Below, one piece after another: positions 3,131-42,189 of a stretch of DNA of 64,000 bases; positions within the stretch are counted from its first letter, which is position 1; each line of letters starts with the position of its first letter. The notes under the pieces were generated by a model. It was not told the DNA's origin. It ran no database searches and saw only the letters and a list, made by a program, of their open reading frames with translations. This DNA is from Gemmatimonadota bacterium (GTDB lineage: Bacteria; Gemmatimonadota; Gemmatimonadetes; Gemmatimonadales; Gemmatimonadaceae): positions 192,674-256,673 of the forward strand of contig VHBO01000001.1 in assembly GCA_016871895.1 (NCBI GenBank). The letters run 5' to 3'. Made by a program: the position numbers and the translations under genes.

Positions 3131-4198
3131 TCAGGCGATCAGCATCGCGTCGCCATAGGAGTAGAACCGGTACCCCTCGCGCACGGCGACGTCGTAGGCG
3201 TGGCGCATCAGGTCATACCCCGCCATCGCGGCGACGAGCATCAGCAGGGTCGATCGGGGGAGATGGAAGTTCGTCACCACGAGGTCGGCGCCAGTCGGGC
3301 GGTGCGGTGGCCGGATGAACACGTCGGTCTCCCCGCTCCCCGCCTGGAAGCGCCCCGCCGCGTGGATGGTCTCGAGCGTGCGCAACGCGGTGGTCCCGAC
3401 CGCGCAGATCCGTCCCCCCGCGGCGCGGGTCGCGCCAAGGCGCGCCGCCATCTCGGGCCGGACCTCGTACCACTCCCGGTGCATCCGGTGGGCGGCCGGG
3501 TCATCGACCTCGACCGGTTTGAACGTCCCCGCCCCGACGTGCAGGAGCACCTCGGCGCGCGTCACGCCCTGCGCCTCCAGGGTGGTGAGGAGCTCGGGGG
3601 TGAAATGCAGGCCCGCGGTCGGGGCGGCCACCGAGCCCTCCTCGCGCGCATACACCGTCTGGTACCGCTCCACGTCCGCGGCACCGTCGGCGCGGGCAAT
3701 GTACGGTGGGAGCGGGATGTGCCCGTGCATCGCGATCATCGCGGCGGGGTCGTCGGCGAGGAGCCGCACGACGCGCGTCCCCTCGGCAGTCGGTTCCTCG
3801 ACGTCGACCGCAAACCCGTCTGCGATCGTGACCCGGCGCCCCGGTTTGAGCTTGGCGCCGGGCTGCACCATCGCCTCCCACCGGCCATCGGCGAGGGGGC
3901 GGAGGAGGAGGATCTCCGCCGGGGCGCCCGAGGCCCGCGTTCCGAGCAGCCGGGCGCGGAAGACCCGCGTGGTGTTCACCACGAGCGCGTCCCCGGCGCG
4001 CAGGAAGCGCGGGAGGTCGCGGAAGGTGTGGTGCGTGACCGTGCCGGCGGCGCGGTCGACGACCATCAGGCGGCTCTCGTCGCGCCGTTCGGTCGGATGC
4101 TGCGCGATCCGGTCGGGCGGGAGATGGAAGTCGTAATCCGCGGTGCGGAGGCCGAGGACCGGCGGCTCCGTGGCGCGGCGATCGTCGCCGTCGCCCAT
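3131..4198 (-). CDS. queA: S-adenosylmethionine:tRNA ribosyltransferase-isomerase
   Basis: DYDFHLPPDRIAQHP, GSVAAPTAGLHFT, TNFHLPRSTL, YRFYSYGDAMLI. Confidence 0.97.
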   Translation of the reverse strand: MGDGDDRRATEPPVLGLRTADYDFHLPPDRIAQHPTERRDESRLMVVDRAAGTVTHHTFRDLPRFLRAGDALVVNTTRVFRARLLGTRASGAPAEILLLRPLADGRWEAMVQPGAKLKPGRRVTIADGFAVDVEEPTAEGTRVVRLLADDPAAMIAMHGHIPLPPYIARADGAADVERYQTVYAREEGSVAAPTAGLHFTPELLTTLEAQGVTRAEVLLHVGAGTFKPVEVDDPAAHRMHREWYEVRPEMAARLGATRAAGGRICAVGTTALRTLETIHAAGRFQAGSGETDVFIRPPHRPTGADLVVTNFHLPRSTLLMLVAAMAGYDLMRHAYDVAVREGYRFYSYGDAMLIA

Positions 4199-33051: not shown

Positions 33052-33336
33052 ACCCGTAAGCTACGGTCCGTTCCGTACCGGTGCATCGGGTCGAAGTGGC
33101 GGCCCACCTGTCATTTACGTTGCCTCTCACTAGGTTTCCTCGCAGAGGTTGCCGCGGACGGCGGCGTGGCGGTCCCCCGGATCGGGGGGCCCGACGCCTG
33201 GCCCGTGAGCGGTGCCTCGAGCGGGTGCGCGGCTGCGCCAGCGGCATCTTCCGGGACCTGTGGGTCCGGACGAGCGGCTGCGCGCGATCGCCCCCGCGCC
33301 TCATCACTCCCATGGCGCGAGGCGCCAAGGAACAGC

Positions 33337-34992
33337 ATGTCACATCGTCCGCATCACTCGGCGCGCCCTGGGCGCGTCGCGGTGGCTCCCCTCCATCGGG
33401 GCCCCCAGGCCGAGACACCCGGCCATCCCCACGCGCCGAACGCGGCGCTCCTCATCGACTTCGACAACGTCACGATGGGGATCCGCTCCGACCTGCAGAC
33501 GGAGCTCCGGAACCTCCTCAGCAGCTCCATCATCTCGGGGAAGGTCGCCGTCCAGCGCGCGTACGCCGACTGGCGTCGCTATCCACAGTACATCGTTCCG
33601 CTCTCCGAGTCGTCGATCGACCTCATCTTCGCGCCGGCCTACGGCAGCTCGAAGAAGAACGCGACCGACATCCGCCTCGCCGTCGACGCGATGGAGCTCG
33701 TCTTCACGCGGCCGGAGATCGGGACCTTCATCCTCCTCTCCGGTGACTCCGATTTCTCGTCGCTCGTGCTCAAGCTCAAGGAGTACGGGAAGTACGTGAT
33801 TGGCGTCGGAATCCGGGAGTCGTCGAGCGACCTGCTCGTCCAGAACTGCGACGAGTACTACTCCTACAACGCGCTCGCCGGCCTCGTGAAGTCGGGCGAC
33901 GAGGCGGAGCAGAAGAAGTGGGATCCGTGGGAGCTCGTCACCGAGGCGATCACGCGGATGCAGCGCAACGGCGATGTGATGCGCTCCGACCGCCTGAAGC
34001 AGGTGATGGTCGAGATCGACCCGTCGTTCGATGAGAAGAATCTCGGGATGGCGAAGTTCTCGCGCTTCTGCCTCGAGGCCTCGCAGAAGGGGCTGCTCCA
34101 CGTGGTGAAGCTCGAGAACGGGCAGCTCGAGGTCGGCCCGGCCGCGTCGAAGGCGGGCGCTGCCCCGACGGAGCGCGCCGAGCGTCCTGCCGCGGGAGAA
34201 CCGCGTGAGGAGCGCGAGGGGGGGCGTCGTCGTGGGCGCCGCGGGCGCGGCGGTCGCGGCCGGGATCGCGATCGTGAGCGCACCGGCGAGCCGTCGGAGT
34301 CGACGGGCGAGAGCCCGGCGGCTGACACGGTCGCGACTGAGACGCCGGCCGGCAGCGGGGCGCAGAAGCCGTCCCCGAAGGCCCCAGCCGTCGATGCCTC
34401 GATCGGCGCCGAGGGACTGCGTCTCACGCGCGACGAGGCGTTCGACCTCGTGCGGCGTGCGGTCGCAGCGGTGGCGCGCGGCGATGCGCCCGTGCTCGCC
34501 GAGCGCGTCCGCGCGGAGGCGCGGGCGCTCTTGGCGCGCGACAGCGAGTCGCTCTCCGAGCGGAACTTCACGCGTATCCTGAAGGACGCGCACGATGCCG
34601 GGATCCTCGATCTCCGGAAGCGCGGCGAGAGCTTCGAGGTGCTGGCCTCCTCGGGCGGTCCGAGCATCGCCGACCAGCTGGCGAGTGCGGAGGCGGCGGC
34701 GACGCCGGTCGCCGCGCCGGCCGCGCCCGCCCCGCGTGGGATGGGGCCGCGCTCCGCGCCGAACACGCGCGGTGGGCGTGCGGCTGCCAAGGCGGCGGTG
34801 CCCCCGAGCCTGCTCCTCCTCGGCGTCGTCGATGAGCCGGCACCGGCGACCGCCGCGGCGGAGCCCGTGGCCGACGAGCCGAAGAAGGGACGCGCGAAGG
34901 CCAAGAAGGCCGCTGCGCCGTCTGAGAAGCCGGTGACGGCCAAGAAGGCGCCGGCGAAGAAGGCCCCGGCGAAGAAGAAGGCCGCGAAGTAA
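33337..34992 (+). CDS. NYN domain protein with OST-HTH/LOTUS-like domains and Lys/Ala/Pro tail
   Basis: IDFDN, AYADW, KNATDIRLAVDAM, LSGDSDF; FDEKNLGMAKFSRF; start codon uncertain. Confidence 0.85.
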   Translation: MSHRPHHSARPGRVAVAPLHRGPQAETPGHPHAPNAALLIDFDNVTMGIRSDLQTELRNLLSSSIISGKVAVQRAYADWRRYPQYIVPLSESSIDLIFAPAYGSSKKNATDIRLAVDAMELVFTRPEIGTFILLSGDSDFSSLVLKLKEYGKYVIGVGIRESSSDLLVQNCDEYYSYNALAGLVKSGDEAEQKKWDPWELVTEAITRMQRNGDVMRSDRLKQVMVEIDPSFDEKNLGMAKFSRFCLEASQKGLLHVVKLENGQLEVGPAASKAGAAPTERAERPAAGEPREEREGGRRRGRRGRGGRGRDRDRERTGEPSESTGESPAADTVATETPAGSGAQKPSPKAPAVDASIGAEGLRLTRDEAFDLVRRAVAAVARGDAPVLAERVRAEARALLARDSESLSERNFTRILKDAHDAGILDLRKRGESFEVLASSGGPSIADQLASAEAAATPVAAPAAPAPRGMGPRSAPNTRGGRAAAKAAVPPSLLLLGVVDEPAPATAAAEPVADEPKKGRAKAKKAAAPSEKPVTAKKAPAKKAPAKKKAAK

Positions 34993-35051: not shown

Positions 35052-35171
35052 GTGCGTGCGGGCGTCTGCGTGGGCGTGTGCGTGCGGGCGTCTGCGTGGG
35101 CGTCTGCGTGGGCGTCTGCGTGGGCGTCTGCGTGGGCGTCTGCGTGGGCGTCTGCGTGGGCGTCTGCGTGC
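35050..35171. repeat. 12-bp tandem repeat (GGGCGTCTGCGT)n
   Basis: Seven perfect consecutive units at 35086-35169, plus one perfect and degenerate copies at 35050-35085. Confidence 0.95.
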
Positions 35172-37543: not shown

Positions 37544-40504
37544 CTAATGATCGCCCGACACCGCCACCGGGGAAAGCGCATCCACCCGGACCGCGCACAC
37601 CTTGAACTCCGGGATCCCGGACGGACCGTCGAGCGCCGGGTTCGTGAGCAGATTCGCCGCCGCCTCGCGGTAGTGCATCGGCAGGAAGACCTGTCGGCGC
37701 GCCACGCGCTCGGAGAGCCGGACGTGCACGCGGATGGTGTTCCGGCGTGACGTCACCTGCACTTCGTCCCCGTCGGCCACGCCGAGGTCGGCGGCGTCGA
37801 CCGGATTGAGCTCGAGGGTCGGCGTGCTTTCCCGCGCGTCGAGCGCGGTGCTGCGACGCGTCATCGTCCCGGTGTGCCAGTGATACATCTGCCGCCCCGT
37901 GTTCAGGAAGAACGGGAACTCGGCATCGGGCAGCTCGGCGGGCGGCAGGTAGGCCACCGGATGGAAGCGCGCGAGGCCGTCGGTCGTCGGGAAGTGGTCG
38001 GCGAAGAGGAACGCCGTTCCCTCGTGTGTGCCGTCGGGGACGGGATACTGGAGCCCGCCCACCCGCGCCGCGAGGCGGGCGTGCGAGACGCCGCGCCAGT
38101 TCGGCGTGACGCGCGCGATCTCGTCGAAGACCTCGGCGGCGGTCGTGTACGGCGCGTGGACGCCGAGGCGACGCGAGAGGTCGAGGACGATGTCGAGGTC
38201 GCCGCGTGCCTGTCCCGGTGGGTCGACCGCCTTCCGCGAGAGTTGGATGCGACGCTCCGTGTTCACGAAGGTGCCGTCCTTCTCCGCGAAGCTCGCGCCG
38301 GGGAGCACCACATCCGCGCACCGCGCGGACTCCGTGAGGAAGAGGTCCTGCACCGCGAGGAAGTCGAGACCGAGGAACCAGTCCTCGGCGTGCGCGACAT
38401 CCGGGTCGGAGATGATGGGGTTCTCCCCCATGATGTAGAGGCCGCGCACCGGCGACTCGTGGCCGACGATCTCGGTGACTTTCCGCCCGACCGTCGGGTC
38501 GAGCCGCTCGGGCGGGACCTGCCACGCCGCCGCGAAGGCGGCGCGGACCGCCGGATCGTCGACGCGCTGGTAGTCGGTGAAGGCGAAGGGAATCGCCCCC
38601 ATATCGCTGGAACCCTGGACGTTGTTCTGCCCGCGAATCGGGATCATCGGCGCGCCCCAGCGGCCGATCATCCCGCAGGCGAGCATCAGGTTCAGCAGCG
38701 AGGTGACGATGTCGGTCCCCGTATGATGCTGCGTGAGCCCCATTGCCCAGAGCGTCGCGGAGCGCGGGCCACGGGCGTAGGCCTCCGCGGCGCGACGGAT
38801 CGCATCGGCGGGGACACCGGTGATCGCCGCGGCCATTTCGGGAGTGTAGGGCGCCACCGCGGCGCGGACCGCGTCGAAGTCGCGGGTCCGGGCCGCGATG
38901 AAGGCGCGGTCCTCGAGCCCCTTCGCGAGCACGTGATGCAGCATCCCGTTCAGCAGGGCCACGTCGGTCCCGGGGATCATCTGCAGATGGACGTCGGCGC
39001 GGGCGGCGAGCTCGATGCGGCGTGGGTCGGCGACGATGAGCGTCGCCCCGCGCTTCAGGGCCCGCTTGAGCGCCGCGCCGAACACCGGATGGCTCTCGGT
39101 CGTGTTGGCGCCCAGCAGGAAGATGACCTCGGATTCGTATTCCACCTCGCGCATCGATCCGGACGCAGCCGAGGTGGCGAGCGCGCGTTGCATCGCGCTC
39201 ACGGAGGAGGCGTGACAGAGACGCGTGCAGTGGTCGACGTTGTTGGTGCCGATGCCCGCGCGGAAGAGCTTCTGGAGGATGTAATTCTCCTCGTTGGCGC
39301 ACTTGGCGCTCTGGAAGGTCGCGAGGCTCGATGGGCCGTGCGTGTCGCGCAGGCGCGCGAGTTCCTGGGCGGTGAGCTCGAGCGCCTCCTCCCACGTGGC
39401 CTCGCGGAACGGAGCGAACCAGTCGGGTGGCGTCGCGATGCGGTCGCGCGGGTCGCCGAGCGCCTCCTCGGCGCCGCCATCGCGCCGACGGAGCGGGTTC
39501 GTGCGCGGCCGATGGTCCTTCGCAGCGTGCCCCTCGTCCTCGACGGCGACCCACGGTCCGCCGCGACGCGGCCACGAGGCGATGTCAGGGTGCGACGGAT
39601 CGAAGCGCCAGACCCCGTCGGTCCCGCGGGTCCACCCACGGCGGATGAGCGGCGTGGTCAGGCGATCGCGATGCAACACGAAGTCGGTGCCGAAGCGTCC
39701 CTTCACGCAGGTCGATCCCTGGTTCGGCGTCTCCTCCTCGATCCACGGCGAGCGGACGCGCACCACCTGGCCGGCGTGCACCTCGAGGTCGAGCTGGCAG
39801 CCGACGGCACAGTAGGGGCAGACCGAGCGGACCGTCTCCGCGGGTGCCTCGAGCGTGCCGGCGCGCAGCTTCGCCATCGGGAGGATGTCGTGGATGGCGC
39901 CGGTCGGGCAGACGCGGACGCACTCGCCGCACCAAGTGCATCCGGCGTGCTCCGGATTCCCGTCGGCCCCGACGATGATCGCCGTGCCCTCGCCGCGCTC
40001 CGCGACCTCGAGCACGCCGACCACCTGGATATCCTCGCAGGCTCGCACGCAGCGGGTGCAGAGGATGCAGGTGCTCATGTCGTGCGTGATGATGGGATCG
40101 GATGGGCGTTCGTCGCCCGCGCGCAGCGGGAGCGCGCCGGAGCGGGTGCGCGGCACGTCGTAGCGATGGACGAGCGCCTCGAATTCGTTGCGGCCGCCGT
40201 TGGCGGGGATCGTCTCCGCGGGGTAGCGCTCGAGGAGGAGCGAGAGGACCGCGCGGCGATTCTCGACGGCAGCGTGCGATTCGGTGTGCACCACCATCCC
40301 ATCGGCGGCGGGCGTCGCGCACGCGGGGAGCAACTTTTTCTCCCCCTCGACGGAGACGAGACAGATGCGGCAGTTGCCGACTGTCGGGAGCTTTGGATAC
40401 CAGCAGAGGGTTGGCACCTCGATGCCCGCGCCGCGCGCCGCATCGAGGATCGTTCCGCCTGCCGCGACGTCGCATTCGCGACCGTCGATGATGACCCGCG
40501 CCAT
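37544..40504 (-). CDS. fdhF: Formate dehydrogenase alpha subunit (molybdopterin, Cys-type)
   Basis: Start reassigned to MARVIIDG (40504); 2Fe-2S C-x10-C-x2-C-x13-C; CILCTRCVRAC, CTWCGECVRVCP, CPYCAVGC..CVKG; active site RLCH; IRGQNNVQG. Confidence 0.9.
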   Translation of the reverse strand: MARVIIDGRECDVAAGGTILDAARGAGIEVPTLCWYPKLPTVGNCRICLVSVEGEKKLLPACATPAADGMVVHTESHAAVENRRAVLSLLLERYPAETIPANGGRNEFEALVHRYDVPRTRSGALPLRAGDERPSDPIITHDMSTCILCTRCVRACEDIQVVGVLEVAERGEGTAIIVGADGNPEHAGCTWCGECVRVCPTGAIHDILPMAKLRAGTLEAPAETVRSVCPYCAVGCQLDLEVHAGQVVRVRSPWIEEETPNQGSTCVKGRFGTDFVLHRDRLTTPLIRRGWTRGTDGVWRFDPSHPDIASWPRRGGPWVAVEDEGHAAKDHRPRTNPLRRRDGGAEEALGDPRDRIATPPDWFAPFREATWEEALELTAQELARLRDTHGPSSLATFQSAKCANEENYILQKLFRAGIGTNNVDHCTRLCHASSVSAMQRALATSAASGSMREVEYESEVIFLLGANTTESHPVFGAALKRALKRGATLIVADPRRIELAARADVHLQMIPGTDVALLNGMLHHVLAKGLEDRAFIAARTRDFDAVRAAVAPYTPEMAAAITGVPADAIRRAAEAYARGPRSATLWAMGLTQHHTGTDIVTSLLNLMLACGMIGRWGAPMIPIRGQNNVQGSSDMGAIPFAFTDYQRVDDPAVRAAFAAAWQVPPERLDPTVGRKVTEIVGHESPVRGLYIMGENPIISDPDVAHAEDWFLGLDFLAVQDLFLTESARCADVVLPGASFAEKDGTFVNTERRIQLSRKAVDPPGQARGDLDIVLDLSRRLGVHAPYTTAAEVFDEIARVTPNWRGVSHARLAARVGGLQYPVPDGTHEGTAFLFADHFPTTDGLARFHPVAYLPPAELPDAEFPFFLNTGRQMYHWHTGTMTRRSTALDARESTPTLELNPVDAADLGVADGDEVQVTSRRNTIRVHVRLSERVARRQVFLPMHYREAAANLLTNPALDGPSGIPEFKVCAVRVDALSPVAVSGDH

Positions 40505-40580
40505 CGTTGCACTCACGTCCGAGGGGTGCAGAAATGATCGCGGTGGCACGCGACGTTGGCAACGAGTTCGTCGCGAGGTG

Positions 40581-40609
40581 TTGACAGCGCGGACGAAAAG
40601 TCTTATGAA
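40581..40609 (+). promoter_or_regulatory. Putative sigma70 promoter for the small peptide gene
   Basis: Consensus TTGACA (40581-40586), 17 nt, TATGAA (40604-40609; imperfect -10). Confidence 0.55.
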
Positions 40610-40714
40610 GTGGGTAGGAAATCGTGATTCCAAACCAGCGGACGCGCTTTCCGGACCCACCGATCCACCGGGGGATCGGCCGGGACACACCACTCCTTTC
40701 AAGGAGCGAGTACC

Positions 40715-40774
40715 ATGGCTGCCAAGAAGAAGGCTGCGAAGAAGGCGACGAAGAAGGCCGCGAAGAAGAAGTAA
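40715..40774 (+). CDS. 19-aa Lys/Ala-rich basic peptide MAAKKKAAKKATKKAAKKK
   Basis: AAGGAG 8 nt before the ATG; all ten Lys codons are AAG; TAA stop; terminator follows; below the ORF-track cutoff. Confidence 0.8.
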   Translation: MAAKKKAAKKATKKAAKKK

Positions 40775-40795
40775 GCGGCTGTCGCGTTCACACGG

Positions 40796-40830
40796 GGGGA
40801 TCGGCTACGGCCGGTCCCCTTTGTGTTTTT
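40796..40830 (+). terminator. Intrinsic terminator
   Basis: GGGGATCGGC-TACG-GCCGGTCCCC stem (UNCG-type loop) followed by TTTGTGTTTTT. Confidence 0.85.
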
Positions 40831-40934
40831 CTGGATGGTGTGATGCGGACAGCTTCCGCGCGCTCGAAGCGCTGCGTGAAAGCGAATCAGTGCGAGAGCT
40901 CCTCGTCGAACTCGTGCGGCGAACTACCTCCGCA

Positions 40935-41099
40935 TCAGGCGGCGCGATTCGTCCCGCTCGCCTCGGCGTCTGGCGCGTCGTCCGGCACCGGGCCCCAGAC
41001 GTACGCTGAGAACCGCGGCGCAGGCTCGGGGGTCAGGCCGGTGGAGATGATGATGCCGATCGGTTCGTCGGACGCCGATAACTGGGTGATCTGGTCCAT
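40935..41099 (-). CDS. Putative 54-aa small protein
   Basis: MDQITQLSASDEPIGIIISTGLTPEPAPRFSAYVWGPVPDDAPDAEASGTNRAA; GAGGA upstream; AT-rich region further upstream. Confidence 0.45.
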   Translation of the reverse strand: MDQITQLSASDEPIGIIISTGLTPEPAPRFSAYVWGPVPDDAPDAEASGTNRAA

Positions 41100-41287
41100 G
41101 TCCGCTTCGTCCTCTGCTCAGGGACGGGCCGGCGGCTCGCCGACCCTTACGCACTTATCATAGAAGATAGGCGTGAGGGCTCTGCGGTCACCGTAGTGGC
41201 GCAAGTTGTTCTACTGTAACTATTTAGGCGGCATCCTCCCGATCGGATCAACCGGGGTGTCGCAGGATGACACACGGCGGAACGCCC

Positions 41288-42070
41288 TCAGGCCACCAAC
41301 TTCTTCGCCACGAAGGTCGATGTCGCGCCCGGCTCCGGGACGAGCGAGATCTGCCAGCCGGAGTCGTACCGCGACCGGAGCTCCTCCTCGCTCAGCACCG
41401 CCTGGCCCGCGATAATCGTCTCGATCAAGTGCACGCCCCCGTCGGTCGTCGCTTCCTGCAGGAGACGGAACACCCGTTCGCGCTCGATCGTCGAGAGCCC
41501 AGCGAATGCGGCCGGCGTGCAGATGACCGCGCCGAGTGGGCCATCGGGGGTGAAGCTGACGAGGTCCGCGGCGAACCCGCGCACCTTCTCCGTGAGGCCG
41601 TTGTCGCGCGCCATCAGCAACACCCGATTCACCACCGCGACCTCGGGTTCGATCGCCGTCACCTCGCAGCCGTTCGCCGCGAGGTAGAGCGCGGACCCCT
41701 CGATTCGCGCGCCGGCCACGAGCACCGATGAGGTCTGCCGAGTCATCGGCAGCGCGTGCGTCAGCGGGGTGTCGGGCCGGAGTCCCCAATGCTCGGGACG
41801 CTGGAGCTCGCTCGCGTTCCGTTCGCGCCGGCGTCGCCACGTCACGAAGGTTGGGAGCCGCAGCCGGCGCGCGATGATCTTGTCGACCTCATCGGCGAGC
41901 ATCACCTCGCGCATCCCGAGCTGCGCGCCCTCGTCGAGCGTGCGCGCCGCCTCTGCCGCGATGCCATACAGGAACTCGCGCGACACCGAGCTCTTGTAGT
42001 CCTCGACCTCTCGCTCCACGTAGCGCAGATACTCCTGGCGCAGCGATTGTGGATGCGACGAGAGAGCCAT
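41288..42070 (-). CDS. Hypothetical protein with degenerate class I SAM-methyltransferase-like C-terminal domain
   Basis: Start reassigned to MALSSHPQ; SVLVAGARIEGSALYLAANGCEVTAIE resembles TehB-type motif I. Confidence 0.65.
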   Translation of the reverse strand: MALSSHPQSLRQEYLRYVEREVEDYKSSVSREFLYGIAAEAARTLDEGAQLGMREVMLADEVDKIIARRLRLPTFVTWRRRRERNASELQRPEHWGLRPDTPLTHALPMTRQTSSVLVAGARIEGSALYLAANGCEVTAIEPEVAVVNRVLLMARDNGLTEKVRGFAADLVSFTPDGPLGAVICTPAAFAGLSTIERERVFRLLQEATTDGGVHLIETIIAGQAVLSEEELRSRYDSGWQISLVPEPGATSTFVAKKLVA

Positions 42071-42189
42071 GAGGGGCGCGTCGAGGGAACGTGGGGAGTC
42101 TCTGCACAAGCTACGTTCAATCGGCGATGCGACAACCCCTGCGCATCTCGACATCTTTCCACATCAGGCCATCGACTCGGAGGAACGTG

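Follow-up and report, generated by a model that had tools for sequence, protein, structure and literature searches.

Tails that consist mainly of lysine and alanine and lack acidic residues occur in several bacterial proteins, among them Hc1 and Hc2 of Chlamydia, AlgP of Pseudomonas, and the mycobacterial HupB, HBHA and Ku, with K and A arranged in KKAAKK-type repeats. These tails are encoded by short tandem DNA repeats and vary in length. AlgP, an H1-like protein with KPAA repeats, localises to polyphosphate granules and spaces them (PMC9239181). The C-terminal tail of eukaryotic H1/H5 and the protamines are also disordered polycations, which function through charge density and composition and evolve fast in length and sequence. 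In size, charge and absence from annotation, the closest described products are bTHX (26 aa), bL37 (24 aa), bS22 and eL41 (25 aa), which come from monocistronic genes with strong signals.

Here, we describe a 19-codon micro-gene of Gemmatimonadaceae and the family to which it appears to belong. Its predicted product shares a combined K and A content of about 90%, the repeats and the lack of acidic residues with the bacterial H1-like proteins, but it is only 19 aa long, contains no globular or other domain and has no HMM match at a curated threshold; in addition, the covarying 5′-UTR structure of this family is undescribed for the genes of those proteins. Homology with eukaryotic H1/H5 or the protamines is not demonstrable, since the micro-peptide has neither the winged helix of H1, than which it is an order of magnitude shorter, nor the Arg-richness of the protamines. 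Whereas the sequences of bTHX, bL37, bS22 and eL41 are conserved, free of repeats and fitted to particular sites in rRNA, the Gemmatimonadaceae family varies 10-fold in length and also varies in residue type.

The micro-gene was found in a 64,000-nucleotide stretch of DNA (the window) from a 2.28-Mb MAG with 70.5% G+C. The original prediction had claimed a TTGACA-17-TATGAA promoter, a leader of ~100 nt, an AAGGAG SD, a Lys/Ala ORF and an intrinsic terminator with a UNCG loop, and every one of these elements was located in the window (Table 1). The leader is about 105 nt long, the SD lies 8 nt before the ATG, and 19 nt separate the stop codon from the terminator stem. All 10 Lys codons are AAG, and a 12-nt tandem repeat (GAAGAAGGCCGC, 3.6 copies) occupies 40726-40768 inside the ORF. 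The encoded peptide of about 2.0 kDa contains 10 K, 7 A, 1 T and 1 M with no acidic residue, giving a net charge of about +10, and after Met removal it is probably AAKKKAAKKATKKAAKKK. The terminator scan returned a stem-loop at 40794-40819 with 12 pairs and the loop UACG, followed by a T-run up to 40830. No other tiny K-rich ORF is present in the host genome, and this, together with the conservation of the unit in related loci described below, goes well beyond chance.

Table 1. Features of the micro-gene and of the convergent genes downstream of it (positions in the window)
Feature	Position	Strand	Remarks
Candidate sigma-70-type promoter	40581-40609	+	TTGACA 40581-40586, 17-nt spacer, TATGAA 40604-40609
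P0, 5′-proximal leader hairpin	40617-40652	+	Sequence variable; MFE fold and RNAalifold
P1 hairpin, defining element of the leader	40654-40686	+	Covariation; covariance model R1
Predicted SD-occluding hairpin	40693-40706	+	Anti-SD CUCCUU 40693-40698, SD AAGGAG 40701-40706; folds
Micro-ORF, 19 aa	40715-40774	+	MAAKKKAAKKATKKAAKKK 40715-40771, TAA 40772-40774
Intrinsic terminator	40794-40830	+	GGGGGGAUCGGC-UACG-GCCGGUCCCC, then UUUGUGUUUUU; terminator scan
54-aa ORF	40935-41099	-	MDQITQLSASDEPIGIIISTGL...RFSAYVWGPVPDD...; convergent to the micro-gene
288-aa protein	41288-42154	-	Weak TehB- or daptide-methyltransferase-like similarity

We searched the DNA of 60 relatives with a segment of the locus, and 40654-40830 was matched at 80-94% DNA identity. 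Every genome of the genus that is at least 90% complete carries this segment, and the only short, weak matches were in three genus genomes that are 71-85% complete. The ORF was intact, with 17-21 aa, in 30 of the 30 genus loci from this search; of another 46 public contigs, collected with the leader pattern, 44 likewise had an intact ORF of this length. The two exceptions are a locus at the end of the fetched DNA (L050) and one with the same start and a longer ORF (L069), and neither amounts to a disruption. Neither a frameshift, an internal stop nor a lost start was seen in the 74 genus loci. Among the 25 distinct DNA versions of the micro-ORF in the genus, substitutions were mostly at third positions of Ala and Thr codons (GCN/ACN), with the caveat that these codon-position counts come from short sequences and are partly alignment-dependent. 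The amino-acid changes were swaps among A, T, V and S, AAA occurred once among the Lys codons while AAC and AAT were absent, and the stop codon was either TAA or TAG. Every indel was a multiple of 3 and consisted of AAG or GCN units, so that slippage of these trinucleotides could by itself preserve the frame whether or not the DNA is coding. The claim of a complete stand-alone unit below usual ORF cut-offs was thus borne out, with the SD, the ORF and the terminator present and conserved in 74 related loci, and conservation of the ORF and SD in relatives, the lack of which would have refuted the original prediction by its own terms, was found in the same loci. Taken together, these comparisons make it very probable that 40581-40830 is a real, unannotated 19-codon gene that is translated in a freshwater Gemmatimonas-like bacterium.

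The promoter is less certain. The promoter at 40581-40609 was absent from the list of a consensus promoter scan because the last base of its -10 element is A and not the canonical T. Support for it comes from relatives, since TTGACA with a TAT-type -10 is retained in the five closest loci and, as TTGACA-17-TATTCA, in a second clade. We call it only a candidate promoter because its -10 is non-canonical and because most genus members lack TTGACA and have the unit directly 3′ of a co-directional gene. In its own clade, where the TTGACA promoter is present, a divergent formate-dehydrogenase-like gene faces the unit, while the co-directional upstream gene of most other genus members ends in ...DFNFTSLSEAV. 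The convergent pair downstream, which consists of the 54-aa ORF (no match in Pfam or NCBIfam) and the 288-aa methyltransferase-like gene, is constant throughout the genus.

The locus with the longer ORF, L069 (public contig CAZIDS010000429.1), has a genus-type leader, and there MAAKKKKAAKKKTKKAAK... runs in frame into the longer ORF (...QFLYRQAELLDAKQWKAWTELFTEDGI). From its motifs we take this ORF to resemble an NTF2-like protein or a ring-hydroxylating dioxygenase beta subunit; the arrangement could reflect a fusion that exists in nature or else a chimera created during assembly.

The leader RNA is structured. With RNAalifold on 46 genus sequences, P0 showed four pairs with many compensatory changes (for example, GC 18, AU 16 and CG 5), P1 showed one covarying pair (CG 35, UA 11), and the terminator formed a 13-pair stem with covariation. 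The terminators of other genera are unrelated in sequence and equal in strength. In P1, a 1/2-nt internal loop separates an outer helix of 5 bp from an inner helix of 7 bp, which is capped by the hexaloop ACCGGG (40667-40672). When 43 distinct sequences from many Gemmatimonadaceae genera were compared, 87% of the cells in P1 were paired and both-side changes occurred in 11 of the 12 pairs. None of 500 shuffled controls reached any of the observed measures, and slid controls were 21-59% paired. Since G-U pairs are found on the sense strand, P1 is more likely to act as RNA than as a DNA operator.

The pattern CACCGGGG-N30-60-ATGGCNGCNAAGAAG was present in 55 of 201 Gemmatimonadaceae genomes, representing 27 of 77 genera, and the control gave no matches. 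R1, a covariance model that we built on P1, scored 50.1 bits (E=1e-9) at 40654-40686, its sole significant match in the own genome, and found about one match per genome in Gemmatimonadaceae. Six weak R1 matches were fetched from other families (three from f2 and three from f7), and none of them was followed by a basic ORF; R1 matches in sister families are probably false. Rfam 15 gave 0 matches in 39500-42000 of the window up to E=10, and its only matches in 18 loci from other phyla were to tRNA and 6S RNA at other places in these loci. These comparisons suggest that the family-wide P1 leader is a previously undescribed 5′-UTR motif that is specific to Gemmatimonadaceae.

Several further roles for P1 were considered and rejected. 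A P1 regulon in the own genome was ruled out because P1 is single copy there. We discarded a long-range interaction in which P1 would pair with the terminator, as the two do not covary with each other and the terminators are unrelated in other genera, and a pseudoknot between the hexaloop and a downstream CCGG was unnecessary, as the CCGG segment is the covarying outer helix. P1 does not mimic rRNA either, its apex (UCCACCGGGGGA) having no rRNA copy. A second copy of the apex is absent from a near-complete genus genome, and in a complete relative only a chance intragenic copy was seen. The 3′ arm of P1 (40667-40677) and the 5′ arm of the terminator (40795-40805) have an 11-mer in common, GGGGGAUCGGC (GGGGGATCGGC), of which the genome contains 7 copies; the sharing holds across the genus and not in other genera, and it is accompanied by no covariation link.

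Downstream of P1, we found a consistent type of product. In the fetched loci, 215 of 223 ACCGGG hairpins were followed by an SD, an ATG and a K/R-rich, acid-free ORF, and the eight exceptions were truncated loci, chance intragenic hairpins or false matches in other families. These ORFs encode 103 distinct products with lengths of 14-154 aa and an overall composition of 40% K, 32% A, 7% R, 6% G, 5% T, 4% V, 3% P and 2% S with practically no D or E; K and R together account for 41-64% of a product. Short forms (14-36 aa) are present in many genera and include MAAKKKKAAKKKKK (14 aa), MAAKKKKAAKKGGKKKK (17 aa) and MAAKKRGGRKGGAKKRGGAKKRGGAKKRGGARKRR (35 aa), and a 50-aa S/R/K product is also found behind the leader. 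In the genus that includes the complete 4.6-5.3 Mb Gemmatimonas sp. genomes, the leader precedes KKAAKK-repeat Lys/Ala proteins of 92-115 aa (105-107 aa in the complete genomes), and in sister genera it precedes Lys/Ala H1-like proteins of 92-154 aa, which are ordinary members of the compositional class of bacterial H1-like proteins. The window locus has the features that define this family, namely P1 with ACCGGG, the anti-SD/SD hairpin, the ATG, an acid-free K/R-rich ORF and a terminator. Judged by these comparisons, the locus is orthologous across Gemmatimonadaceae, and charge and composition are the conserved features of its product.

Since the same leader stands before H1-like proteins of 92-115 aa, we place the 19-aa peptide at the short end of a family of H1-like polycations. 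This lends substantial support to the earlier idea of a free H1-like tail, as the leader is shared with Lys/Ala H1-like proteins of up to 154 aa. A formal assignment to a known H1-like family did not follow, since the Pfam HC2 model (PF07382) gave 31.3 bits with the 142-aa leader-defined form and 10.3 bits with the 50-aa form, both below the gathering score of 40, and neither Pfam nor NCBIfam matched the 21-aa genus variant. The micro-peptide is also too small and too simple to offer a fold for comparison. An exact look-up of 16 peptides and proteins in a collection of 15 billion proteins found none of them.

Downstream of P1, the SD is enclosed in a CUCC...GGAG hairpin with variable loops that recurs in folds across the family; in one clade, the partner of the SD is instead a UCUC that directly precedes the ATG. 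The predicted pairing probability of the SD averaged 0.90 compared to 0.71 in shuffled sequences (92 distinct leaders, Wilcoxon p=4e-13), the shuffled value being already high because the leader is C/U-rich. The covarying leader and the predicted occlusion of the SD, which the original prediction had not noted any more than the length-variable family, imply that expression is regulated rather than simply constitutive. Like the ROSE and fourU thermometers and the autoregulatory leaders of r-protein genes, this leader is predicted to have a short hairpin that joins the SD to an anti-SD on its 5′ side, together with a conserved upstream hairpin, here P1, that could bind a factor. Unlike those elements, it matches no Rfam family and has a hexaloop, ACCGGG, that is specific to Gemmatimonadaceae.

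By analogy to H1 tails, Hc2, AlgP and the KA tails of HupB, Ku and HBHA, the micro-peptide is probably a polyanion-binding polycation; that it acts on the nucleoid specifically is a more tentative proposal, which we consider somewhat doubtful. Other ligands would suit such a peptide. A lineage-specific ribosome-associated micro-protein that sits in an rRNA groove in the manner of bTHX, bL37, bS22 or eL41, with an autoregulatory leader, would explain why the gene is tiny, very basic, monocistronic and strongly signalled and why it has a structured leader, as is typical of ribosomal-protein genes, and rRNA is the most abundant polyanion that a +10 peptide would meet. However, the orthologues range from 14 to 154 aa and shift in composition from K/A to R/G or S/R/K, and a fixed rRNA pocket is therefore hard to reconcile with them. 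Moreover, no ribosomal-protein family in Pfam or NCBIfam matched the 21-aa variant, there are no ribosomal genes nearby, and the apex of P1 has no rRNA copy, so that we regard a ribosomal micro-protein as unlikely, although a loose association with ribosomes would be compatible with the results. Binding of a non-nucleic polyanion, above all polyphosphate granules, has a precedent in AlgP and fits the composition equally well, and Gemmatimonas aurantiaca, the type species, is a polyphosphate accumulator. But ppk, ppx and granule genes are absent beside the locus, and similar tiny ORFs occur in many phyla whatever their polyphosphate lifestyle. As the sequence results do not distinguish polyphosphate from DNA or RNA as the ligand, we keep polyphosphate as a candidate and consider it quite unlikely to be the main one.

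The unit could be read as a non-coding or dual-function sRNA in which (AAG)n is an A-R-N module for Hfq binding and the ORF is incidental, for it is short and has a hairpin at its 5′ end, a single-stranded stretch rich in A and G, and a strong terminator that leads into a U tail, and its leader RNA is conserved above the synonymous sites of the ORF. Yet the third base of the A-R-N units stays G throughout the genus (one AAA and no AAC or AAT), as expected of Lys codons, and in other genera the tract gives way to sequence rich in CGN, GGN or UCN, the product of which is still a polycation. The nucleotides of the tract change while the polycation stays, so that the AAG tract cannot be understood as RNA alone; the start codon, the SD spacing and the stop codon that closes the basic tract are also kept in 215 of 223 leaders, and we hold the sRNA explanation to be very improbable. 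With Lys at 10 of 19 codons and a terminator behind it, the ORF might also be a lysine-sensing leader peptide, or attenuator, of a downstream gene, a design for which polycysteine leader ORFs provide a precedent. Such a gene is missing, however, since both downstream genes are convergent to the unit and this arrangement is kept in the genus. The stop lies 19 nt before the stem, no conserved antiterminator alternative was found, the terminator differs in sequence between genera, and orthologues of up to 154 aa are rich in Arg, Gly or Ser, all of which leaves attenuation scarcely credible. Decay of a longer H1-like or SWIB-tail gene after loss of selection would account for the long forms in sister genera and for the first 30 nt of the ORF, which equal the start of a SWIB-domain gene of the own genome, and repeat DNA contracts easily. 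A remnant is nevertheless highly improbable, because 17-21 aa are maintained in 74 loci at 80-94% DNA identity with the SD, start, stop, leader and terminator intact, and because short forms of 14-36 aa exist in many genera.

Returning to the polycation, we propose the following model, in which 40581-40830 would be a monocistronic gene for a 19-residue polycation at the short end of a Gemmatimonadaceae-wide family. The family would be defined by its 5′ leader (P0, P1 with ACCGGG and the anti-SD/SD hairpin) and not by peptide sequence, and its products would be acid-free, low-complexity, H1-tail-like polycations of Lys, Arg, Ala and Gly, 14-154 aa long. Selection would hold their charge and composition while their length drifts, plausibly by slippage of AAG-GCN repeats. 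The peptide would bind non-specifically by electrostatic attraction and neutralise the charge of cellular polyanions, of which DNA and/or RNA, ribosomes included, are the likeliest and polyphosphate is a possible one. Its output may be set post-transcriptionally by the structured leader, with P1 as a binding or stability element and with the SD masked until the leader is remodelled, perhaps in a feedback exerted by the polycation itself or by cation status. As a long shot, the short forms could be gene-encoded polyamines, that is, bulk polycations of 14-36 residues that are produced in large quantity and neutralise nucleic acids, with the P1/anti-SD leader as a feedback riboregulator that unmasks the SD. 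In this speculative version, to which we give a slim chance, the signal read by the leader would be polycation or Mg2+ status, or the peptide itself as a bound ligand.

If confirmed, the orthology of the leader, and not composition alone, would make the 19-residue peptide the same gene as the 100-residue H1-like proteins, and a histone-H1-like function in bacteria may therefore need only the bare tail. The leader would then be a strongly covarying 5′-UTR motif that gates the translation of a polycation and a tractable candidate riboregulator. Genes of the size of the micro-ORF are systematically absent from annotation.

Similar micro-ORFs are found outside Gemmatimonadota. The pattern AAGAAGGCNGCNAAGAAGAAGTAR, taken from the 3′ end of the micro-ORF, occurs in more than 120 contigs from many phyla. 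Among 76 loci (L087-L162, nearly all from other phyla), 34 carry a total of 35 K/A-only ORFs of 16-40 aa, most of which begin with MA[A/T]KK, and nearly all of which have a GGAG-type SD a few nt upstream and a strong hairpin downstream. They come from Nitrospira, Acidobacteriota, Bradyrhizobium, Steroidobacteraceae, Methylomirabilota, Eisenbacteria, Planctomycetota and a Micrarchaeaceae archaeon, and none of those in other phyla is annotated. No neighbour gene is common across the phyla, synteny being limited to clades, and our literature search found no description of stand-alone K/A oligopeptide genes. Micro-genes made up of an SD, an ORF and a terminator thus recur across phyla, and cultured relatives exist for the class. 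If the gene-encoded polyamine version were true, it would, together with these look-alikes, mean that charge homeostasis in prokaryotes has a widespread layer that annotation has missed. In an Aestuariivirga MAG (L091, JANPHF010000130.1), two K/A micro-ORFs of 26 and 33 aa lie in tandem at 3186-3439, and both have a GGAG SD and a terminator of their own.

Polycationic tails were also seen on larger proteins. Outside the window, the own genome encodes a 116-aa SWIB/MDM2-domain protein with a K/A-rich N-terminal tail (L002:1501-1850; contig C32:13036-13385), which scores 100 bits with Pfam SWIB and has an SD context similar to that of the micro-ORF. The 30 nt that its gene shares with the start of the micro-ORF (ATGGCTGCCAAGAAGAAGGCTGCGAAGAAG) suggest a shared or exchanged module of start plus tail. 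In three loci of genus g32 (L240, L242 and L243) and in one of g27 (L235), SWIB-domain genes with long K/A/P N-terminal tails lie behind a hairpin with a P1-like apex, UUCC-ACCGGG-GGAA, of which R1 covers the apical part only (15-17 bits). In some genera, more than one gene with a polycation tail may be marked by the ACCGGG loop, and the single g27 case could be chance. Inside the window, a 608-aa ORF at 33166-34992 (+), which by eye looks NYN/LabA-like with OST-HTH, terminates in a K/A/P tail (...KKGRAKAKKAAAPSEKPVTAKKAPAKKAPAKKKAAK). A 15-nt tandem repeat at 34937-34977 encodes this second polycationic tail, which lies less than 6 kb from the micro-gene. Directly after the terminator-like hairpin of the preceding gene, an intergenic 12-nt tandem array, GGGCGTCTGCGT, is repeated 9.1 times with 94% matches at 35060-35170.
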